Notes under the pieces: model-generated
Database searches by the model: none
What the model was told of the DNA's origin: nothing
The model's input: the letters and a program-made list of their open reading frames with translations, nothing else
In this document: positions 898-51,437 of the stretch, in pieces
Numbering within the stretch: the first letter of the stretch is position 1
Layout of the letters: each line of letters begins with the position of its first letter
Translations under genes and position numbers: made by a program
Assembly (NCBI GenBank): GCA_020725385.1
Contig: DYFC01000031.1
Coordinates: forward strand, 1 to 56,353
Direction of reading: 5' to 3'
Origin: Nitrospira japonica
Lineage (GTDB): Bacteria > Nitrospirota > Thermodesulfovibrionia > Thermodesulfovibrionales > SM23-35
DNA: 56,353 bases

Positions 898-3003
898 ATG
901 GAAGAACAAGAAATACATTTAAGAGATTACTTAAAAATCATATATAAAAGAAGATATACTGTTTATACTTTTTTTACAATTGTATTTATTGTAGTTCTTA
1001 TCGGCACACTTTCTACAACACCTATTTACAAAGCTTCTACTAAAGTTCTGATCGAAAAAGTCGAACCTGCAAATCTTACGCTCCCATATCCTTATTATGC
1101 GCCTTATGAACCCGAATTTTATGAAACACAATATCAGCTTATCAAAAGTACTTCTGTTGCTTTAAAAGTTGTAAAAGCACTTTCACTTGAAAATATGTAT
1201 GAAATATATTTCAAAGGTGAAAAAATTAACCCCCGTGGCAATAAAACAAAAGCCGATGTTCTCGCAGATATTATAAGTAGCGGGATAGTCGTAACTCCTG
1301 TAAAAAACAGCAAGATAGTTACAATAAGTTTTATGTCAACTAATCCCGAATTTGCAGCTTTGGTTGCTAATTCTGTTGCAAAGGCTTATATCGAGGAAAT
1401 TCTTGACATGAGGATGAGTTCGTCCAGATATTCGATCGAATGGATGTCCAAGAAAGCTGAAGAAGAAAAAGCAAAGCTCGAAAAATCTGAAAAAGCTCTA
1501 CAGGAATTTATGAAAGCAAATGATATTGTTACTCTTCAGGATAGACTCGCTCTCACACCCGAAAAATTAAGTGAATTTAATACACAATTGATAAGAGCTG
1601 AAATGAAAAGAAAGGAATTGGAAGGTTTGTATAGTAAAGTTTCAAGCATCAATATCAAAGATGCTGAAACTATACCATATATAGCATCTGACCCTACAAT
1701 TCAGGCACTAAGAAACCAGAAACTCAAGGCAGAGCAGAATATAGAAGAACTTTCAAAAAAATATGGTTCAAAACATCCGGCGATGCTTAAAGCACAGGAA
1801 GAATTAAAAGTTATAGATCTTAAAAGAGAACAGGAAATTAAAAGAGTTATCGCATCTATTAAAAATGAATATGAACTGGCAAGAAATAATGAGAATACTT
1901 TGCGTAGAACCCTTGCCGGCACAAAATCTGAAGCCATCAGTATGAATGAAAAATTCATTCAATATAATACTCTGGCCAGAGAAGTCGAAACAAATAGACA
2001 ACTATACGATGCGCTTATCAAAAAGCTGAAAGAAGAAAGCGTTACCCAGCAGGTACAAACAGTCAATGTATGGGTTGTTGAAAGAGCAGAAAAGCCTGAT
2101 TCACCTGTTAAACCTAGAAAATCCTTAAACATCCTTCTTGGAATTATTGTTGGTCTTTTTGGAGGAGTTGGCCTCGCATTCTTTTTTGAATATCTCGACA
2201 ATACTGTAAAAACACCCGAGGATGTTGAAGCAAGAATTGGTGTTCCTGTTATAGGAGCAGTACCTTTATTAGAGGAAAAGGGTGAACATATTGAAGAAAT
2301 TATTCTTAAGGAACCACAATCAGTTCATTCGGAAAGCTATAAGAGTATAAGAACAGGAATACTTCTTGCTTCTGCAACAAAGCCGCCTCAGAATATCTTA
2401 ATTACAAGCATGGCACCTGAGGAAGGTAAAACAGCAACTTCTGTCAATTTATCTTTAACTATTGCAAGATCAGGATATTCTGTTGTTCTTGTTGACAGTG
2501 ATTTAAGAAAACCCCGCCTCCATCAGATATTCAGACTTAATAATATGAGCGGACTAAGCACGTATCTTGCCGGTGCAACTCCAGATATTGATACCATCTT
2601 AAAAACTCCTTTAATGAATCTTACTGTAATTCCAGCAGGGCCATTGCCTCCTAACCCTTCAGAATTACTCGGCTCTCAAAGAATGACCAAATTAATTGAA
2701 ACATTAAATGAACGTTTTGATCTTGCAATCTGGGATTCACCTCCTTTAATGACTGTAACAGATGGTTTAATTCTTAGCAATCTTGTTGATGGAACTATAA
2801 TTGTTGTAAGAGCAGGTAAAACTACCTATGATATTATTAAGAGAGGTTTAAAGCTAATTGATGGTAGAAGAAAAACCGATACTACTTCAAATGTGCTCGG
2901 AATAGTTATAAATGGGTTTGATGTAAAGAACGCAGATCAGTATTATTACAAATACTATAATTACTACCCATCTGAAAAGGAAGAACCAAAAAAAACAATC
3001 TAA
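898..3003 (+). CDS. wzc: Polysaccharide co-polymerase / BY tyrosine autokinase (Wzc/GumC family)
   Basis: Wzz-like N-terminus (EIHLRDY), two TM helices, P-loop EEGKT, DSDLRKP, DSPP and a C-terminal Tyr cluster YYYKYYNYY. Confidence 0.9.
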   Translation: MEEQEIHLRDYLKIIYKRRYTVYTFFTIVFIVVLIGTLSTTPIYKASTKVLIEKVEPANLTLPYPYYAPYEPEFYETQYQLIKSTSVALKVVKALSLENMYEIYFKGEKINPRGNKTKADVLADIISSGIVVTPVKNSKIVTISFMSTNPEFAALVANSVAKAYIEEILDMRMSSSRYSIEWMSKKAEEEKAKLEKSEKALQEFMKANDIVTLQDRLALTPEKLSEFNTQLIRAEMKRKELEGLYSKVSSINIKDAETIPYIASDPTIQALRNQKLKAEQNIEELSKKYGSKHPAMLKAQEELKVIDLKREQEIKRVIASIKNEYELARNNENTLRRTLAGTKSEAISMNEKFIQYNTLAREVETNRQLYDALIKKLKEESVTQQVQTVNVWVVERAEKPDSPVKPRKSLNILLGIIVGLFGGVGLAFFFEYLDNTVKTPEDVEARIGVPVIGAVPLLEEKGEHIEEIILKEPQSVHSESYKSIRTGILLASATKPPQNILITSMAPEEGKTATSVNLSLTIARSGYSVVLVDSDLRKPRLHQIFRLNNMSGLSTYLAGATPDIDTILKTPLMNLTVIPAGPLPPNPSELLGSQRMTKLIETLNERFDLAIWDSPPLMTVTDGLILSNLVDGTIIVVRAGKTTYDIIKRGLKLIDGRRKTDTTSNVLGIVINGFDVKNADQYYYKYYNYYPSEKEEPKKTI

Positions 3004-3044
3004 AAAAATGGACTATTCCAGGAAAATTATCTTACTTATAATAA

Positions 3045-5396
3045 ATGGATATGGATAAGATAATTCCTTTCCTTTTTATTTTTGTTCTTTTATTTTCTCC
3101 CCTTGCTTTCGGAACAGTAGAAATATGGTCTCTAACCATAATGGAAATTTCTGTTATTTTCTGTTTATTATTGCTGATAATAAGAAATATTAAACGGAAA
3201 AACATTCCATTTTATGAAGTGCCCGGGTTAATACCTTTTGTTTTGATTTTGTTCTATATTTTATTCCAGCTTGTTCCTCTACCGCATAGCTTATTGAAAA
3301 TTATTTCCCCTGAAACATATCGTATTTATCAAGATACTGTATTTACAGCAGGCTATGATTCTTGGGTTTCTATTTCAATTAACAAAAAACAGACATTACT
3401 TGAATTTCTCAGAATATCTTCATATGCTGCTTTTTATGTCCTTACTGTCCAGATGCTTACCGATAGGAAAATGTTAAGAAAAACTGTTTTTGTAATAATA
3501 ATTTTTGCATCGGTTCTTTCATGTTTTGCAATTTTACAACATATTCTCTCAAATAACAAAATTTACTGGCTTAGAGAATTACCATATGGAGGTTCATTTT
3601 TTGGTCCTTATGTAAATAGAAATCATTATGCAGGACTTATGGAAATGATTTTCCCTTTAATAATATCAATTTTTCTTTTGTATAAACCACACCTTCATTA
3701 TGCAACGCTGCGTGATAAAATATCAGCACTTTTTAACCTAAAAAGCACGAATGTTTATCTATTGATCGGATTCGGGGCCATATTAACAGCGACCTCTGTT
3801 TTTTTAACTCTTTCCCGGACCGGAATCATAAGTCTTTGTATATCCATGATTGTTTTTGGCTTATTATTTGTTTTAAAAAGTCAAGACAAAAAAAGAGGGG
3901 CTATTATAATAATCATAGGAATTCTTGTTGTCCTTTCTGTTGGATGGTTTGGCTGGGAGCCAATCTTTGAAAGATTCGAGAAACTAAAGGATGCAAGATA
4001 CAACATCGAAGAGACCAGGCTTCAGATATGGGATGACAGTATAAAAATAGTAAAAGATTTTCCATTAACCGGAACAGGGATGGGTACCTTTATAAATATT
4101 TATCCACGTTACAGAACAGTCCCCGGTAATGCAATTGCAGCACATGCGCATAATGACTATATCGAATTTTATACAGATGGAGGGGCTATTTTATACTTTC
4201 TTGGTTTGATTTTTTCAGGAATATTTTTCTATAAAGTTTTTAAAGCTTTTACGAAAAGAAAAGATATTTTTTCAATTTATATATTTATAGCATCTATAAG
4301 CGGCATAATTTCTATAATAATTCATAGTGCTACTGACTTTAATTTGCATATAGCAGCAAACGGACTTTATTTTACATTTTTATTCGGGCTTACAGTTTCA
4401 GCAGCCAATACAAGAATGCACCATCATCTAAACAATACTAATTTAAGGGAAATAAAAATTAATACCAAAGTTATACTATCAAGCACCATAATATTATTTT
4501 TAACAATCTTAGTTTTTAATATCAGGTTTTTAATTGGTGAATTTTATTTTTCAAAAATTAGAGATATTAAAATTACAAATAACCTTTCTCAAAATGAATT
4601 CAATGAAATAAGAACTGCTTCAACTAAAGCCTCTATTTTCGATTCATTAGAAGCAGAATATTTCTATGCAACAGCAAACATTGAATGGCTGATGTCGAGT
4701 AAAGAAAATGCAAAAGCAAAATACTTAAAAGCTGTCTGGCTTAATCCTGTTAGTGGGGAGTATTTACAAAGACTCGGTCTTGTTATATCTGATTTTAAAA
4801 AATATGATGTTGCAAACAAGCTTTTACTTGCTGGAATCGATTTTGATAAACAAAATATTTCGAGATATAAAAGATATGTTGCATGGCTTTTTGCGGTTGG
4901 CAGAAATGATGAGGCAAAAAATATTATAAGAAAAGCTATTATAATAGAACCTGAAAAAACAAGAGAATTTGTTACAATAATGATATTAGAAAAAATGGAT
5001 GATTATGAAATATTATCTGTTTTGCCAGAAATACCTGTACCATATCTTATATTCGCGGATTATCTATTGAAAACAGGAAATGAAAAGATGGCTGAAATCG
5101 TTTACACAAATGCTTTTGATTTAATTAAAGAAGATAGAAATTTCCCGGCGTCTTATATTTTTTCGATTAAAAATTACTATTTGAAAAAAGGCAGATTCGA
5201 GGAAGCTTTAAACTTTTTGAAAAAAACCGAGGCATTTTCTCCTAATAATATAAAAATTAAAATTAATATAGGTGATATTTATGAAAAACTCGGGAATAAG
5301 GATAAAGCTGCTGAAGAATATAAAAAAGCACTTAATATTGATCCAAACTATATAGATGCAAAGATACGGCTTGAAAGGTTATCAGCAAGAAAATAG
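3045..5396 (+). CDS. O-antigen ligase/Wzy_C-family membrane protein with C-terminal TPR repeats
   Basis: About 12 TM segments, GPYVNRNH, SRTG, GTGMGTF and HAHNDY motifs, TPR tail (KAAEEYKKALNIDP). Confidence 0.85.
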   Translation: MDMDKIIPFLFIFVLLFSPLAFGTVEIWSLTIMEISVIFCLLLLIIRNIKRKNIPFYEVPGLIPFVLILFYILFQLVPLPHSLLKIISPETYRIYQDTVFTAGYDSWVSISINKKQTLLEFLRISSYAAFYVLTVQMLTDRKMLRKTVFVIIIFASVLSCFAILQHILSNNKIYWLRELPYGGSFFGPYVNRNHYAGLMEMIFPLIISIFLLYKPHLHYATLRDKISALFNLKSTNVYLLIGFGAILTATSVFLTLSRTGIISLCISMIVFGLLFVLKSQDKKRGAIIIIIGILVVLSVGWFGWEPIFERFEKLKDARYNIEETRLQIWDDSIKIVKDFPLTGTGMGTFINIYPRYRTVPGNAIAAHAHNDYIEFYTDGGAILYFLGLIFSGIFFYKVFKAFTKRKDIFSIYIFIASISGIISIIIHSATDFNLHIAANGLYFTFLFGLTVSAANTRMHHHLNNTNLREIKINTKVILSSTIILFLTILVFNIRFLIGEFYFSKIRDIKITNNLSQNEFNEIRTASTKASIFDSLEAEYFYATANIEWLMSSKENAKAKYLKAVWLNPVSGEYLQRLGLVISDFKKYDVANKLLLAGIDFDKQNISRYKRYVAWLFAVGRNDEAKNIIRKAIIIEPEKTREFVTIMILEKMDDYEILSVLPEIPVPYLIFADYLLKTGNEKMAEIVYTNAFDLIKEDRNFPASYIFSIKNYYLKKGRFEEALNFLKKTEAFSPNNIKIKINIGDIYEKLGNKDKAAEEYKKALNIDPNYIDAKIRLERLSARK

Positions 5397-20719: not shown

Positions 20720-23700
20720 ATGCATCAACATTCAGATTATGTTCCCCTCCATCTGCATACTGAGTATAGCCTGCTTGATGGAGCAATCCGTATAAATGAG
20801 CTTATAGAACAGGCAATATTATATAAAATGCCTGCTGTTGCGATGACAGACCATGGTAATCTTTTTGGCGCCCTGGAATTTTATCGTCGCGCAACAAAAG
20901 CAGGCATAAAACCTATTATTGGCTGCGAGGTTTATATTGCTCCGGGCAGTCGTTTTGAGAAAAAACACGATAATGAGACGGATGAAGCATCTTTTCATCT
21001 AATACTTCTTGCAAAGGATAATAAAGGGTATAAAAATCTTGTTACCCTGGTAACAAGGGCATATACAGAAGGTTTTTATTATAAACCAAGAATAGATATA
21101 GACCTGCTAGAACAATATAGCGGTGGATTAATTGCACTTACTTCGTGTCTAAAAGGAGAAGTGCCTTTTTATTTGCAAAAAGGAATGCTTGATGTAGCAA
21201 GAGAGAGGGCACTTCGTTATAAGCATATTCTTGGTCCTGACAATTTTTATATAGAACTTCAGGACAATGGATTGCCGGAGCAGGAAGAAGTAAACAAAAA
21301 GCTTTTTGAACTTGCAAAAGAGTTGCACATTAAGATAGTCGCTACAAATGACTGCCATTACTTAAAAAGAGAAGACGCAAGGGCACATGAAGTGCTTTTA
21401 TGTATTCAGACCGGAACAACTATGTCCGATGCTAAAAGGATGAATTTTAGGTCAGATGGTTTTTATTTTAAATCTCCCCAGGAAATGAAAAGAGCTTTTA
21501 AAGATTTGCCAGAAGCATTATTAAATTCCCTTGCAATAGCCGAGATGTGTAATGTTGAATTCGAACTTGGTAGAAGTCTTTTGCCCTTATATGAACCTGA
21601 AAATGGCCAATCTCCTGATACGTTCCTTGATAAACTTGCATATGATGGATTGGTAAAAAGGATAGGTGCAAATCCAGATGAAATATATGTTGAAAGACTA
21701 AAAAGAGAACTCGAAATCATAAAAAAGATGGGATATTCATCTTATTTTCTAATAGTATGGGATTTTATAAGTTATGCAAAAAACAAGGGTATTCCGGTAG
21801 GGCCTGGAAGAGGCTCGGCAGCAGGAAGTCTCGTATCATATTGCATAGGAATAACAGATATAAATCCTGTTAAGTATAATTTGCTTTTTGAACGGTTTCT
21901 TAACCCCGAAAGAATAAGTATGCCTGATATTGATGTTGATTTCTGTAAAGACAGACGCGGAGAAGTAATTGATTATGTTTCAGCTAAATACGGTCAGGAC
22001 CATGTCGCTCAAATTATAACATTCGGAACAATGGCGGCAAAAGCAGCTATAAGGGATGTAGGCAGAGCTCTTGATTTTCCATATAATGAAGTAGATAAAA
22101 TTGCAAAACTTGTACCTAATGCTTTGAATATTACTATTCAGGAAGCTTTAAAAGTAGAACCTGAATTAAAAAAATTGTATACGGATAATCAGAAAATTAA
22201 AGAACTTATTGATATAGCGATGAGACTCGAGGGTCTTAGCAGACATGCATCTACACATGCAGCAGGTGTTGTTATTTCTCCTACTCCATTAACAGAATTT
22301 ACTCCACTTTATAAAAATCCCTCTGACGGTACGATAATGACTCAATTTGATATGAATTCTGTTGAAAAAATCGGATTGCTTAAATTTGATTTTCTTGGAT
22401 TAAAGACCCTGACAATAATTGAAAAGACCGTCAAATACATTAAAGAAAACGGTAAAGAATTTTCTTTGAGTGAAATATCTCTCGATGATAAAAAAACGTA
22501 TGAACTTCTTAGTTCAGGTAATACAACAGGAATATTTCAGCTTGAAAGCGCAGGTATGAGAGATGTTCTTGTTAAGATGACTCCTGACAGATTTGAAGAT
22601 CTTATAGCAATAGTTGCTTTATATCGGCCCGGACCTATTGGAAGTGGAATGATTGACGATTTCATTAAAAGAAAAAAGGGATTTGTACCTGTTAAATATG
22701 ACCTGCCTCAGCTAAAGGAGATTCTTGATGAATCATATGGAATTATTCTTTATCAGGAACAGGTAATGAGAATAGCGAATAAACTCGCAAACTTTACAAT
22801 GGGGCAAGCTGATATTTTAAGAAAAGCAATGGGTAAGAAAAAACCCGAAGAAATGGAGAAGCTCAAAGAAGTCTTTATACAGGGAGCTATTTCAAACGGA
22901 ATTCCTGAGAAAAAAGCAAAAAAGATTTTCGACCTTATGGAGTTTTTTGCAGAATATGGTTTTAATAAATCACACTCTGCTGCTTATGCTTATATAGCTT
23001 TTCAGACAGCTTATCTAAAAGCCCATTACCCTGTTGAATTTATGGCTGCAACATTAAGCGCTGACATGGACAATACTGATAAAATTGTAAAAACAATAAC
23101 AGGCTGCAGGGAAATGGGGATAGAAATATTACCTCCTGATATAAACCTCTCAGGTAAAGAATTTAAGGTTATAGGCAATTCTATAAGGTTCGGACTCGAA
23201 GCAGTAAAAGGCGCGGGTTCTGCTGCGATTGAATCTATTATTGAATCAAGAAAAAATGGAGGTCCATTTAAATCAATTGATGATTTTCTACAGAGGATTG
23301 ATCAGAGGAAAGTAAATAAAAAAGTTGTAGAGAGTTTAATTAAAGCCGGAGCATTTGATTCACTTAATATTACAAGGCTCGGTGCTATGGAGCTTGCAGG
23401 TAGCATAATTAATTGTTCTTCAAAAGGACAGGCGAGTTTGCTCGGACAACAAAGTTTTTTAAATGAGGATTTTTTAGAATTTCAATCTGAACTCAAAGAA
23501 TGGAGCAGGGAAGAAATACTAAGGAATGAAAAAGAATCATTAGGCTTTTATATATCAGGACATCCACTCGACAAATACGAAAAAGTACTTAAAAGAATAG
23601 GCGCGGTTAAATCATCTAATTTAGATGATTTAACCGATAATTCAGATATTATAGTAGCAGGAATATTAACAGGTATCCGTAAAATACAAACGAGAACAAA

Positions 23701-24136
23701 ATCAGAAATAATGGCTTATTGTACTCTTGAAGATCCGGATGGACACATAGAAGTAATAGTATTTCCCGACCTTTTCAGGAAGAAATTAAATATAATCAAA
23801 AAAGATGAACCTCTAATTGTAAAAGGTACTGTTGACAAAACTGAAAAGGGAATTAAAATAAAAGCTACAGAGATAAATAATCTGGATACATTGAATGAAG
23901 AATCAATACAGAAAGTTGAAATAAATTTGAAAGTTCCCTTTGAACATAAATCTGATATGCTTTCCCTTAAGTCAATTCTTGAATCAGATTCAAAAGGTAA
24001 GTATCCTATTTTTATTCGTTTATTTTATAAGAATACCGAAGTTCTAATAGAAACCGAGTTTAAGATATCTTGTGAAGAATCTATATTAAAAAGAATTGAA
24101 GAAATTACAGGAAAAGGAGAAGTAATATTTAAGTGA
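20720..24136 (+). CDS. dnaE: DNA polymerase III alpha subunit
   Basis: PHP domain ([12 protein letters not shown]), [27 protein letters not shown] fold. Confidence 0.97.
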
Positions 24137-25116
24137 TAAGATATTATCTTGAATTTGAAAAACCACTTGAAGAGCTTGAAACAAAAATCGATGAATTGAA
24201 GAGAATTTCAGACAGCAAAGACATAGATATATCCGAGGATATAAAAAAGCTTGAGAAAAAAGTTCAGAATATGAGATCTGAGATTTTTTCTTCTTTAACT
24301 CCCTGGCAAAAAACTCTTATAGCCAGACATCCTGACAGACCTTATACACTTGACTATATCAAAATGATGACCACAGATTTTATTGAAATACATGGTGATA
24401 GAAAATTTTTAGATGATCCTGCAATAGTCGCAGGAATCGCAAAAATTAATGAAATTCCTGTCGTAATTATTGGGCATCAAAAAGGTAGAGGGACAAAAGA
24501 AAGGATATACCGCAATTTTGGTCAACCGCATCCTGAAGGTTATAGAAAAGCTTTAAGAGTAATGCAACTCGCTGAAAAATTCAAAAAACCGGTAATTACT
24601 TTTATTGACACACCCGGTGCATATCCCGGTATAGGCGCTGAAGAAAGAGGTCAGGCAGAGGCAATAGCAATGAATCTTATGGAAATGTCGAGATTGAAAA
24701 CGCCGATCATTTCTATAGTTATTGGAGAAGGTGGCAGCGGTGGTGCTCTTGCTCTCGGAGTAGCCGACAGGCTTTTTATGCTCGAGCATTCATGCTATTC
24801 TGTAATTTCTCCGGAGGGTTGTGCTGCAATTTTATGGAAGAAAGAAAGTAATGAACTTAAAACAAGTGATTTTTCAAAGGCAGCAGAAGCATTAAGGCTG
24901 ACTTCGCAGGATTTGTTTGATTTTAAGATTATAGACGGTATAATTCCGGAACCATCAGGAGGAGCTCATAGAAACCCTGAGTCAATGGCAGAATCTATCT
25001 CCGGAGTAATTGTTACTTCTATTGAAGAACTGAGAGCTAAGTCGATAAACAAGCTTGTAGAAGAACGATATAAAAGATACAGGAAAATAGGCAGTTTTTT
25101 TGAGTCAAAGAAATAA
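24133..25116 (+). CDS. accA: Acetyl-CoA carboxylase carboxyltransferase alpha subunit
   Basis: [43 protein letters not shown] start overlaps the dnaE stop. Confidence 0.96.
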
Positions 25117-25117
25117 A

Positions 25118-25306
25118 TTACTTTGTATTTATTACTGCAATAAAACCGTAACTACGAAGAAAAAATTTTAAGCATTCCTTGTCCCAGAACGTCATATATT
25201 TTTCACCTTGTGGATCAGGTTCTAAAATATTACCACTTGTGAGTTTTGCCGGTACTACATAAATACCATTTTTTTCTTTGACAGATATTTCTTTTTTCTG
25301 TCCCAT
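25118..25306 (-). CDS. Small hypothetical protein (62 aa)
   Basis: GGAGG SD before ATG 25306 (MGQKKEISV...). No motif recognised. Confidence 0.65.
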   Translation of the reverse strand: MGQKKEISVKEKNGIYVVPAKLTSGNILEPDPQGEKYMTFWDKECLKFFLRSYGFIAVINTK

Positions 25307-25538: not shown

Positions 25539-25763
25539 ATGGGCATAGTTTTTATAGATACCACCGGATTGAAATGTCCACAACCAATTCTAAAAATAGC
25601 TGCTAAATCTCCTGATATGCAGCCGGGGGATATACTTGAGGTACTCGGAGATTGTCCTACATTTGAAAGAGATATTAAAGCATGGTGCAAACGTCTAAAA
25701 AAAACTTTAATATTTATCAGAGATGAAGGTTCCAATAGAAAGAGGTGCCAGATTAAGTTTTAA
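25539..25763 (+). CDS. tusA: Sulfur carrier, TusA/SirA family
   Basis: IDTTGLKCPQPILK (CPxP) motif, 74 aa, SD AGGAGG. Confidence 0.9.
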   Translation: MGIVFIDTTGLKCPQPILKIAAKSPDMQPGDILEVLGDCPTFERDIKAWCKRLKKTLIFIRDEGSNRKRCQIKF

Positions 25764-25972
25764 GTTTCTGTATCAAAATTCTCACCATGAGAAAGATTTG
25801 TCAGGAATTGAGAAATCAAAATTCATGTCAGGTTTATGTCTTTTTTATAAAAACTCATATCTTATTCATTAATTCTTAGGTTTTGATTTATAACCCCTTT
25901 AAAACAATTAGTTATGGTTGCATATGATTGAGCAAAAGTATTTTTTATAAGATTAGTCTATATATTGAAAAA

Positions 25973-25990
25973 TTGGCATTATAATTGCAA
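25973..25990 (+). promoter_or_regulatory. Sigma-54 (-24/-12) promoter
   Basis: TTGGCATTATAATTGCAA: GG at 25975-76, GC at 25987-88, exact 10-nt spacing. Confidence 0.75.
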
Positions 25991-26000
25991 AAATAATTTT

Positions 26001-26137
26001 AGAGGCATTTAAAGTGAGCTTGAAGCTGCCGCTTAGCGACCTTGAGCGGATTGATTGAAAATCAAGGCTGAAAGGGAAGGTCTTTCGTAAGAACTATCGT
26101 ACAGATAGTGGTAAAAGGGCTTCAAGCTCACTTTTTT
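26001..26137 (+). ncRNA. Candidate structured small RNA of unknown family
   Basis: Perfect 16-bp closing stem 26011-26026/26119-26134 enclosing four short hairpins, ending in a T-tract. Begins about 12 nt after the sigma-54 -12 box. Confidence 0.6.
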
Positions 26138-26213
26138 ATTTAAAATAAATATTGCTATGGATTTAAGTAGTAATGTTATTATCAAATATAAAACTATTAA
26201 ATAATGTTACGAC

Positions 26214-27995
26214 ATGGAAATGAAAATCTCTGATATCCCGACAAATCCCGGCATTTATATATTTAAAAATGATAAAGAACAGGTGCTTTATGTTGGTAAG
26301 GCAAAAAATCTCAGAAACAGAATCAAAAGCTATTTCAATAAGTCATCAATAGATTCGAGAAAATCCGCCCTTGTAAAAGAAACCAAAGATATAAGCTATA
26401 TTGTAACTGACAATGAGCTTGAAGCATTTGTTCTCGAAGCAAATTTGATAAAACAGCATAAACCAAAATTTAATATTATCCTTAGAGATGATAAGAACTA
26501 CCCTTACATAAAACTTACAATTAATGAAGAATGGCCCCGTCTTGAGGTTGTAAGGCGGTTTGTAAAAGATGGTGCATTATATTTTGGTCCTTATGTTCCT
26601 GCCGGGGCTATGTGGGATACTATTGATTTCATACGGAAGAACTTTCAAATAAGGGATTGCTCGGTTGAATTTAAAGATAATATGAAGCCATGTCTTCAAT
26701 ATCAGATTGGTAGATGTTCTGCGCCATGTGCAGGAATGATAACAAGGAATGAATATATGAAGACAATAAACAATGTTAAGCTATTTCTTAATGGAGAAAG
26801 AAAAAGCCTTATAGGAAATCTTAGAAAAAAAATGATCGAACTTTCCAAACAGATGAAGTTTGAGGAAGCAGCAATTATAAGGGATAAAATCAATTCAATT
26901 GAGAAAACATGGGAATCACAGAAAATAGTTTCACCTGGAATGGAAGATATTGATATTATCGGTATATATAGGGGTGAAAATGGGACAGCATTCAAAGTAT
27001 TATTTCTTAGAAAAGGTTTGATGATTGGTTCAAAAGATTATTTTATTAAAGACTCACAGAGTTTAAGCAATAAAGAATTAATTCAATCATTTATTATTCA
27101 GTTTTATTCAAAAGATATTCTTCCCGCAAAAGAAATAATTGTTGAAGTCCTGCCAGAAAACGTAAAATCAATCGAAAAATGGCTTAAATCTAAAAGTGGA
27201 GAGAATGTAAGAATTCTCATGCCTGATGCGGATAGAAAAAAAGAGCTCGTGAATATGGCATCGGAGAATGCGAAATATCTTTATAACTCAAAATCAGGCT
27301 ATAACGTTGAACAGACTTTGCAAGAGTTAATGAAAAGATTAAATATTGTAGAAGTGCCTCAATATATTGGTGCTTTTGATATATCAAATATTTCAGGAAA
27401 TGAAGCTGTTGGGTCTTTTATTGTATGGGCTAAAGGGGAATTTAGAAAAGAAATGTATAGAAGACTTAAGATAAAAACTGTCCATCAGGTTGATGATTAT
27501 GCCATGATGAGAGAAGTTTTAGGAAGAGTAATCAATAATCTTGAAGGTAATGTGCCTGATTTAATAATAATAGACGGCGGTAGAGGACATCTTGAGACAG
27601 CCTGTAGAGTTTTTGAAGAAAATCAGGATATTTTGAAGAAAAAACCCTTTATAATAAGTATAGCCAAAAAACCTGATAGAGTCTTCCTGCCCTTATCAGA
27701 TGTTGTAATTGATCTTGAAGACAGAAGTCCATCTTCATTACTCATGAAAAGTATAAGAGATGAAGCACACAGGTTTGCTATAAGTTATCATAGAAAGCTC
27801 AGAGGAGAGGAGATGTTGCGTTCTCCCCTTGAAAGTTTAAAAGGTATTGGCAAAAAAAGGAGACTTGAACTTTTGAGGAGTTTTGGTAGTATAAAAAGAA
27901 TAAGAGATGCAACTATTGAAGAGATAGCTCATTTAAAAGGGTTCAATAGAAAACTTGCTGAAGAAATTAAACAAAATATAGGGAGGACGGAATGA
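26214..27995 (+). CDS. uvrC: Excinuclease ABC subunit C
   Basis: GIY-YVGKAKNL, FDISN, DDYAMM, IIDGG, RDEAHRFA and a C-terminal HhH. Confidence 0.96.
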   Translation: MEMKISDIPTNPGIYIFKNDKEQVLYVGKAKNLRNRIKSYFNKSSIDSRKSALVKETKDISYIVTDNELEAFVLEANLIKQHKPKFNIILRDDKNYPYIKLTINEEWPRLEVVRRFVKDGALYFGPYVPAGAMWDTIDFIRKNFQIRDCSVEFKDNMKPCLQYQIGRCSAPCAGMITRNEYMKTINNVKLFLNGERKSLIGNLRKKMIELSKQMKFEEAAIIRDKINSIEKTWESQKIVSPGMEDIDIIGIYRGENGTAFKVLFLRKGLMIGSKDYFIKDSQSLSNKELIQSFIIQFYSKDILPAKEIIVEVLPENVKSIEKWLKSKSGENVRILMPDADRKKELVNMASENAKYLYNSKSGYNVEQTLQELMKRLNIVEVPQYIGAFDISNISGNEAVGSFIVWAKGEFRKEMYRRLKIKTVHQVDDYAMMREVLGRVINNLEGNVPDLIIIDGGRGHLETACRVFEENQDILKKKPFIISIAKKPDRVFLPLSDVVIDLEDRSPSSLLMKSIRDEAHRFAISYHRKLRGEEMLRSPLESLKGIGKKRRLELLRSFGSIKRIRDATIEEIAHLKGFNRKLAEEIKQNIGRTE

Positions 27996-51362: not shown

Positions 51363-51437
51363 TGGGGCGTCGACAAACGGCAAGTCAGGAGACTTTGGAT
51401 CTCCCATCTGGAGGTTCGAATCCTCCCGCCCCAGCCA
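51363..51437 (+). tRNA. tRNA-Gln(TTG)
   Basis: Acceptor stem TGGGGCG/CGCCCCA, anticodon arm GGAGA-CTTTGGA-TCTCC, GGTTCGAATCC T-arm, encoded CCA. Confidence 0.96.

Follow-up and report, generated by a model that had tools for sequence, protein, structure and literature searches.

A candidate sigma-54-dependent structured RNA gene from one family of Thermodesulfovibrionales

The contig DYFC01000031.1 of assembly GCA_020725385.1, filed under Nitrospira japonica and assigned to the order Thermodesulfovibrionales of the phylum Nitrospirota, was analyzed over positions 1 to 56,353, and this entire stretch of 56,353 nucleotides (nt) is referred to here as the window. One segment of the window carries, in order, dnaE (20720-24136), accA (24133-25116), a small open reading frame (ORF) on the minus strand, a TusA-family gene (25539-25763) and uvrC (26214-27995). 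Between tusA and uvrC lies an element that an earlier inspection of the letters alone (hereafter the sequence-only reading) had singled out as an undescribed, self-contained structured RNA with its own sigma-54-type promoter. That assessment has held up well: the element occurs once in the genome, has no match in Rfam, retains its promoter among homologues and adopts a fold in which base pairs covary. Judged from these comparisons, the element appears to be a stand-alone gene for a non-coding RNA of ~125-140 nt that represents a new RNA family of a known regulatory kind. A search of the whole window against Rfam 15 at gathering thresholds yields a tRNA at 51363-51434 as its sole match, and when 25850-26250 is scanned more permissively, at E values up to 10, only snR83 appears (E 7.6), outside the element and on the other strand. 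The sequence-only reading had not been able to match the element to tRNA, SRP, 6S, tmRNA or a familiar riboswitch, and no Rfam 15 family covers it either.

The near-consensus promoter TTGGCA-N6-TTGCA is located precisely where the sequence-only reading had put it. TTGGCA (25973-25978) is followed by the spacer TTATAA and by TTGCA (25985-25989), such that the GG of the -24 element (25975-76) and the GC of the -12 element (25987-88) are 10 nt apart, which is the canonical spacing. The homologue set assembled for this study holds 24 copies of the element, representing 17 distinct RNA sequences of which 16 are complete. Conservation of the -24/-12 box together with the RNA is evident in all 24 copies. 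Specifically, 21 carry an exact TGGCA-N6-TTGC, and the other three, which belong to one sequence type (L016, L025 and L029), carry TGGTA-N6-TTGC. The sequences that flank the promoter cannot be aligned between genera although the box itself is kept, and the distance from the box to the first helix of the RNA (P1, Table 1) varies among copies, which leaves an unconserved 5′ leader of ~5 to 28 nt. In the 2.46-Mb genome from which the window derives, that of an uncultured relative of sulfate reducers (96.6% complete), the strict promoter pattern occurs 30 times, whereas ~6 occurrences are expected from base composition, and most of these promoters are intergenic with a ribosome-binding site and a gene behind them. 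The same genome holds one rpoN gene, one hfq gene and 15 matches to PF00158, 12 of which (E 6e-30 or lower) are strong sigma-54 activator domains.

Table 1. Predicted features of the RNA gene and its upstream region, in window coordinates.
Feature	Position	Strand	Remarks
Palindrome TTCTCACCATGAGAA, candidate upstream activator (enhancer) site	25779..25793	.	starts 195 nt upstream of the promoter TGGCA
Sigma-54 promoter TTGGCA-TTATAA-TTGCA	25973..25989	+	direct sequence reading
Predicted transcript, ~140 nt	~26000..26140	+	start predicted ~12 nt past the -12 GC; end predicted in the U-tract
P1, 5′ strand (17 pairs)	26011..26027	+	pairs with 26118-34
P2 hairpin CCGCUUAG-CGACC-UUGAGCGG	26029..26049	+	arms 26029-36/26042-49; 99.2% of cells pair
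Invariant CCUUGA	26040..26045	+	can pair with UCAAGG 26062-67; CCUU alternatively with AAGG in the P4 loop
Invariant junction 12-mer AAUCAAGGCUGA	26058..26069	+	holds UCAAGG 26062-67; unchanged in 16/16 sequences
P4 hairpin UGAAAGG-GAAGG-UCUUUCG	26069..26087	+	arms 26069-75/26081-87; 99.1% of cells pair
Invariant CGUAAGA	26086..26092	+	CG closes P4; GUAAGA is the P4/P5 junction
P5 hairpin ACUAUC-GUACA-GAUAGU	26093..26109	+	arms 26093-98/26104-09; 97.9% of cells pair
P1, 3′ strand	26118..26134	+	pairs with 26011-27
U-tract right after P1	26132..26137	+	likely intrinsic terminator together with P1

Two covariance models, R1 built from four sequences and R2 built from eight, match the window at 25998/26003-26142 with E values of 1e-36 and 2e-34, respectively. 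When the plus strand of 26005-26142 is folded, the minimum energy is -50.5 kcal/mol (z -5.25), which none of 200 dinucleotide shuffles equals, and the prediction encloses four hairpins in a 17-bp helix formed by the two ends. Folding is about as favorable for the minus strand (z -6.97), and therefore folding alone cannot choose between the strands. We assign the RNA to the plus strand because the alignment of the 16 complete distinct sequences (alignment A7) contains invariant or nearly invariant G·U pairs, at columns 33-43, 35-41 and 69-87 in all 16 sequences and at columns 75-81 in 15 of them, that would be C·A mismatches on the opposite strand. This choice agrees with the promoter and with the U-tract. 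The lack of any AUG inside the RNA unit, together with length differences of 1 to 4 nt among homologues, leads us to regard the element as probably non-coding.

The proposed structure was evaluated on alignment A7 with four helices (P1, P2, P4 and P5) that comprise 38 pairs and 607 cells. Pairs form in 96.5% of these cells, compared with 31-54% when the partners are slid by one to three columns. Compensatory double changes are found in ten of the 38 pairs, of which P1 accounts for seven and the other three helices for a single pair apiece, so that the collection of homologues supplies the covariation that a structured RNA should exhibit. The number of cells with double changes is 51, as opposed to 15.6 +/- 3.1 in shuffled alignments, and no shuffle among 500 reaches the observed value.

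Helix P1 contributes most to this result. The sequence-only reading had noted a perfect pairing that runs into a T-tract, and indeed AAAGTGAGCTTGAAGC (26011-26026) is perfectly complementary to GCTTCAAGCTCACTTT (26119-26134), with six T residues at 26132-26137. Double changes affect seven of the 17 pairs in P1, 93.8% of its cells pair, and the helix is present in the minimum-energy fold of all seven sequences that were folded, including those of six further homologues whose z values range from -2.0 to -4.7. The carrier genomes of the family fall in three genera, namely the window's own genus (g1) and two others (g36 and g11). Between genera, P1 is 47-68% identical whereas the core of ~80 nt that it encloses is 76-84% identical; for scale, UvrC from g11 genomes shares 57-58% identity with the UvrC protein of the window. 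In effect, P1 has been rewritten between genera (GUGAGCUUGAAGC versus GUUGUUUUAAAGCC) yet remains paired.

Within P1, all four hairpins drawn by the sequence-only reading are present at the coordinates it gave, but only two are supported as drawn by comparison with homologues. The hairpins CCGCTTAG/TTGAGCGG (26029-26049) and ACTATC/GATAGT (26093-26109), which correspond to P2 and P5, exhibit covariation. By contrast, TTGATT/AATCAA (26051-26065) is confined to the closest relatives, pairs in 59.6% of cells and has gaps at three of its pairs in 13 of the 16 sequences. As for the short helix TCTT/AAGA (26081-26092), four of its eight bases are used by the covarying 7-bp P4, which is the better supported of the two. 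In P2, the lower four pairs are strong and the upper four are mostly G·U, and one pair changes from C-G to U-A in three of 16 sequences. Similarly, the P4 pair at columns 72-84 changes from A-U to G-C in five of 16, and the P5 pair at columns 97-105 occurs as C-G, U-A or U-G.

The junction and loop nucleotides of the core are nearly invariant. In addition to the conserved segments listed in Table 1, alignment columns 83-90 (TCGTAAGA) are unchanged in all 16 sequences. The six pairs that CCUUGA and UCAAGG could form are identical in every sequence, and covariation is consequently uninformative about this helix in either direction; it is used in the minimum-energy folds of three of six homologues. 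In combination with the four strong pairs at the base of P2, it would produce a sterically plausible H-type pseudoknot, with the variable linker as the third loop. The sequence-only reading had proposed a different long-range contact, GACCTT/AAGGTC (26038-43/26077-82). Both segments are present and can pair, but they do not covary, and the outer two pairs are broken in five and four of the 16 sequences. That three invariant segments share CCUU/AAGG complementarity suggests a tertiary contact or a conformational switch.

At the 3′ end, 26117-26129 and the adjoining T-run are picked out by a terminator scan. Four or more U residues in a row follow P1 immediately in 12 of the 16 sequences, and ten of these have five or more; sequence L033 has only UUUAUU at this position.

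The RNA is narrowly distributed. By BLAST, the element is single-copy in the window genome and is found in three of the five other genomes of the genus, but in none of the 35 remaining genomes searched. Model R1 identifies it in eight of 57 genomes of the family, the window's own included (4/6 in g1, 2/2 in g36 and 2/5 in g11), with one match in each, and gives no match in 23 other genera of the family. Searches with R2 produce no match in 136 genomes from the order's 12 other families or in 150 other genomes of the phylum, although these large searches used the stricter filters of Infernal and could have missed weak matches. A pattern scan of species-representative genomes retrieved seven records, all of them metagenome-assembled genomes titled Thermodesulfovibrionia, Thermodesulfovibrionales or Nitrospirota, and a metagenome scan retrieved 14 contigs. 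All 14 contigs, as well as genome records L016 and L020, match R2 at E 6e-27 or lower. Within the collections searched, the RNA is restricted to one family of Thermodesulfovibrionales.

Such a patchy spread, along with clean empty sites in the congeners G001 and G004, where tusA and uvrC are separated by a spacer of ~57 nt and the promoter, the RNA and a ~210-nt upstream region are all missing, is what might be left by a mobile or decaying element, such as a miniature inverted-repeat transposable element (MITE), an insertion remnant or a pseudogene fragment, with an accidental promoter-like box. This explanation is very improbable and in our view close to refuted. There is one copy per genome in all eight carriers and no ORF inside the element, the promoter box is kept in every copy, and purifying selection with compensatory changes is apparent. 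Moreover, the chromosomal place is similar in three genera, being downstream of accA (and of tusA in the window genus), upstream of uvrC, or both.

The sequence-only reading had also proposed enhancer control. Beyond the rpoN gene and the 12 strong activator genes, this proposal gains from a candidate enhancer site that the RNA has in common with other sigma-54 promoters of the genome. The exact palindrome TTCTCA-N3/4-TGAGAA occurs nine times in the genome, compared with ~0.6 occurrences expected (again from base composition), and seven of the nine precede one of five correctly oriented sigma-54-type promoters, at a distance of 77-195 nt. All five lineages of the genus have the palindrome, with at most one mismatch, on the upstream side of the RNA promoter and 122-208 nt away from it, against a background of ~0.006 per 350 nt. 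The palindrome is enriched in all five congeners, including two that lack the RNA, with 3-7 sites in each and none for a reversed control, and 11 of the 15 palindrome sites fetched from congeners have a sigma-54-type promoter within 300 nt.

The genes that share this palindrome suggest what the associated signaling system might be. At G000:C37:34747-40728 (L042 248-6228), genes for a GAF-HisKA-HATPase kinase and a REC-sigma54-HTH_8 regulator are followed by two tandem palindromes of the form TTCTCA-N4-TGAGAA (at L042 3357 and 3377) and a sigma-54 promoter (at L042 3456), which precedes genes for two CheY-like receivers and a HEAT-repeat protein. The other palindrome-marked promoters serve a gene for a secreted isochorismatase-family protein and a gene for a second isochorismatase-family protein (C29 and C58), as well as an operon on C39 that encodes a PilZ protein, a protein with MshE-type domains that bind cyclic di-guanosine monophosphate (c-di-GMP), and a secreted protein. 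A small sigma-54 regulon that also takes in C29, C58 and C39 appears to have its core at the C37 locus. The C37 regulator is a generic NtrC-family protein that falls under every NCBIfam equivalog cut-off, and, to judge by position, it may be the protein that binds the palindrome; the RNA gene is not adjacent to it. No Rfam family was found for the five co-regulated loci, and the 230-nt leader of the co-regulated C29 operon has no detectable structure (z -0.13). Perfect palindromes are also present upstream of RNA promoters in different genera, but they differ from genus to genus and reveal no common enhancer.

For the two remaining exact palindromes, G000:C45:5276 and C45:27656, a strict sigma-54 box is absent from the surrounding 400 nt. 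One of them is situated between genes for a PAS histidine kinase and an outer-membrane efflux protein, and the other is situated by a nucleotidyltransferase/HepT pair.

At its most general, and with no commitment to a sub-mechanism, the interpretation that the element is an independent, sigma-54-dependent, trans-acting non-coding RNA gene is a probable one. Several observations count against it. The 16 aligned sequences are related and come from few lineages, such that the shuffle statistics overstate their independence. The enhancer assigned to the RNA is one site at -195, whereas the other four promoters have theirs at 77-109 nt. In none of nine lineages of other genera does the palindrome occur upstream of the RNA, and their genomes have 0-1 sites without enrichment. 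On this sequence evidence, a regulatory link between palindrome and RNA would be limited to the window genus at most; in other genera, either a different activator drives the RNA or the recognition sequence has diverged. When five conserved segments of the RNA were compared with 4454 candidate start regions of the window genome (the one genome scanned for mRNA targets), the resulting duplexes were scattered matches with no convincing target. Furthermore, uvrC is encoded on the same strand within 4 kb downstream of the RNA in the window and at nine of the 13 homologous loci for which neighboring genes were tabulated, which could reflect plain synteny or a functional tie. Finally, three sequences (G002, G003 and L035) have no U-tract and have the uvrC start ~50 nt downstream, where read-through into uvrC is possible.

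These last two observations speak for a cis-acting 5′ leader of the riboswitch or attenuator type, serving uvrC or a TPR lipoprotein gene plus uvrC. A folded core would join the P1 strands, causing P1 and the U-tract to terminate transcription, whereas an unfolded core would allow sigma-54 transcripts to enter uvrC. The layout is suggestive as well, in that aptamers typically consist of a closing helix around a conserved multi-helix junction. We nevertheless consider a leader improbable, as an account of the gene and likewise as a mode of action. A riboswitch would need a constant gene or pathway downstream on the same strand, and none is seen. Although uvrC directly follows the RNA in some lineages, in others it stands behind inserts, specifically a TPR lipoprotein gene, Fur, catalase and TPR genes, MlaC and TPR genes, or a gene for an HTH regulator. 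Thus, genes as unrelated as Fur plus catalase, MlaC and an HTH regulator come between the RNA and uvrC. At three of the 13 loci (L028, L031 and L032) the RNA runs towards a convergent gene as its next downstream neighbor, on contigs that are short and beyond whose ends uvrC may lie, and in L018 the RNA is followed by a same-strand gene for a cyclic nucleotide monophosphate-binding protein and then by an IS110 transposase gene. In addition, the RNA matches no riboswitch family.

Genomes that lack the RNA are also informative on this point. In the congeners G001 and G004, the 57-nt spacer in front of uvrC contains the motif TGCTACAAT, which is also found between the RNA and uvrC in G002 and G003. 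Because this motif is present both in the RNA-free spacer and after the RNA in G002 and G003, uvrC seems to have its own start signal there. In the window itself, where the sequence-only reading had taken uvrC to have its own promoter, a simple sigma-70 scan of positions 26140-26213 found none. Among g11 genomes, the 1.5 kb in front of uvrC contains no sigma-54 box in the three that lack the RNA, and a filter-free model search of the loci upstream of uvrC in five family genomes lacking the RNA gave a best match of E 2.8. Given the varied downstream neighbors, the empty sites in G001 and G004, and the U-runs, we conclude that the RNA is a separable and dispensable module rather than an obligatory leader of uvrC. 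On the upstream side, accA is found at seven of the 13 loci (L018, L026, L028, L030, L032, L033 and G058), and a divergent gene for a recD2-type helicase is found in L034 and L024.

Several additional features of these loci were recorded. The motif TGCTACAAT resembles an extended -10 element and ends ~8 nt before the uvrC ATG (L037 of G001, ~1440-1500; L041 of G004, ~720-780; also G002 and G003), a position that suggests a near-leaderless or leaderless uvrC mRNA in these four genomes. In L005 (from G002), uvrC seems to be split between two reading frames, with ORFs at 1506-2225 and at 2283-3143 once the locus is oriented, through either a frameshift or an assembly error, and G004 has two adjacent uvrC matches. 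The otherwise gene-free gap between accA and tusA in the window holds the minus-strand ORF of ~62 amino acids (25118-25306), with GGAGG 5 nt before its ATG. L033 and G005, the two closest relatives, retain this ORF; it fails to align in G003 and G001 and has no match in NCBIfam, which was the one database scanned. In L034 and L031, inverted-repeat blocks of the ATTCCCGNNNNNCGGGAAT type, flanked by GTCAT/ATGAC, are situated 50-160 nt upstream of the RNA promoter. These blocks look like small MITE-like insertions between the neighboring gene and the promoter, and they vary among close relatives.

If the element is an independent RNA gene, then the following course of events, in which expression of the RNA, its two ends, the activator that is named and a trans mode of action are all predictions, would fit the observations. 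RNA polymerase carrying sigma-54 would bind the -24/-12 box and would initiate near position 26000 only when the ATPase of an NtrC-family activator acts from an upstream site, which in the window genus is most likely the N3 form of the palindrome (Table 1). Among activators, the best candidate is the response regulator that partners the GAF-domain histidine kinase of G000:C37; the promoter neighboring that pair has two copies of the palindrome. Transcription would stop where the 17-bp P1 meets the U-tract, and the product would be a closed, multi-helix RNA in which P1 clamps a core composed of P2, the variable linker, P4 and P5. This RNA would act in trans as an output of the two-component signal, and it would be co-regulated with CheY-like receivers, PilZ and MshE-type c-di-GMP-binding proteins, and isochorismatase-family hydrolases.

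How such an RNA might act is a matter on which we are more tentative. Binding of a protein or a small ligand by the invariant, possibly pseudoknotted core is slightly favored, though we hold it with less than even confidence. This preference arises because the ends are locked in P1, the loops are 5 nt long, the leader is unconserved and ~80 nt are conserved. Hfq-assisted base pairing with mRNAs is close behind as a mode of action, although somewhat doubtful, and the small share of our expectation that falls outside these two modes and the cis-acting leader goes to other modes. A still more specific proposal, which we offer as a speculative one, is that the RNA is a compact, pseudoknotted receptor, not an antisense RNA, whose invariant core of ~80 nt recognizes one particular protein or small molecule, in which case the co-regulated genes would point towards a signaling set based on c-di-GMP or CheY-like proteins.

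Base pairing in its classical form, as a sub-case of the independent RNA gene with a specific mechanism, would make this an Hfq-dependent small RNA (sRNA) that uses AAUCAAGGCUGA or the CCUU-containing P2 loop as a seed for the ribosome-binding regions of mRNAs. An hfq gene is present, a terminal helix with a U-tail is found in 12 of 16 sequences, the invariant junction is 12 nt long, and the best-known sigma-54-dependent sRNAs, Qrr1-5, are described as working in this manner. We find the proposal unlikely, but by no means negligible. With both ends locked in a 17-bp helix, a 5′ leader that is unconserved and loops of 5 nt, there would be little room for a long duplex, and it is ~80 nt rather than one short seed that is conserved at 76-84% between genera. 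The scan of start regions described above produced no target near a start codon. Elsewhere in the genome, the exact complement of the invariant 12-mer occurs at two sites, compared with 0.3 expected; a tilS-like gene carries one of them on its antisense strand, and the second falls 75 codons into a pgsA-like coding sequence. The co-regulated operon leaders, the start regions of the kinase and regulator genes, and uvrC and tusA pair with the RNA no better than shuffled controls do (best z -2.3).

The sequence-only reading had entertained two other roles, neither of which is backed by any of our results. A protein sponge of the Csr/Rsm type was considered and rejected, as the RNA has a single GGA-containing hairpin loop (in P4) and the 96.6%-complete genome has no match to CsrA. 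A ribozyme-like function finds no counterpart among the ribozyme families of Rfam even at E up to 10. We also rejected a bacterial Y RNA, for which there is no TROVE match in the genome and no match to the Y_RNA or YrlA models.

Small RNAs that depend on sigma-54 are well known, and the RNA described here embodies no new principle in that regard. Established examples include GlmY/GlmZ, NrsZ and CrcZ, and among these, CrcZ, its relative CrcY (both under CbrB and sigma-54) and GlmY (under GlrR and sigma-54) serve as protein-binding decoys. Action through protein binding rather than pairing is the mode slightly favored for the new RNA as well. Unlike those RNAs, it has no repeated A-rich or GGA motifs, no match in Rfam and, in its host, no detected CsrA gene. 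The Qrr1-5 RNAs of Vibrio (under LuxO and sigma-54), as far as accounts of them go, have in common with it that they are small and structured, are transcribed from a sigma-54 promoter and end in a terminator (a predicted one in our case). They also resemble it, again to the extent described, in that an NtrC-type regulator acts on an upstream palindrome and the RNA is an output of a phosphorelay, both of which would apply here only by our interpretation. However, a Qrr RNA lines up its hairpins in a row, leaves a conserved seed open and is one of a set of siblings, whereas the RNA described here is closed by a long helix between its 5′ and 3′ ends, is conserved all through its core and is single-copy. 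No sequence or model match to Qrr was found in Rfam at E up to 10.

A long end-to-end helix that encloses conserved functional junctions or loops is also a property of riboswitch aptamers, Y RNA and 6S RNA. The new RNA is much shorter than 6S RNA and lacks a central bubble; it differs from Y RNA in that no Ro/TROVE gene was found in the host, and from riboswitches in that it has no constant downstream gene. Published reports on Desulfovibrio vulgaris list four non-coding RNAs in its sigma-54 regulome (PMC4641369, PMC3333781) and name Dv_sRNA2, whose function is given as unknown, as a target of the response regulator DVU0679 (PMC3333781, PMC4641369). As described there, the D. vulgaris sRNAs and the RNA presented here both come from anaerobic sulfate-reducer lineages rich in sigma-54 activators, and both are assigned, tentatively in our case, to the regulon of an activator by way of a binding motif and a -24/-12 promoter. 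The former belong to Desulfobacterota and the latter to Nitrospirota, and we liken them on the basis of these descriptions rather than by sequence.

In a full-text literature search, we encountered no description of this RNA and no regulatory RNA described in Thermodesulfovibrionia. Members of this class are widespread, mostly uncultured anaerobes of the subsurface and of sediments. The RNA could be added to catalogues of RNA families, which would improve the annotation of these metagenome-assembled genomes, and its closed, core-conserved architecture makes it a reasonable candidate for an RNA that binds a protein or a ligand. Interest in the RNA would rise if the closed core proves to be such a receptor. 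In that event, a two-component system would switch on an RNA decoy or sensor, and we know of nothing of this kind described for Nitrospirota; moreover, since P1 would be the stem of the terminator too, the folding state of the core might likewise determine the level of read-through. Together with the palindrome-marked promoters, the RNA offers a first sketch of a two-component/sigma-54 regulon with an RNA arm in Thermodesulfovibrionia.

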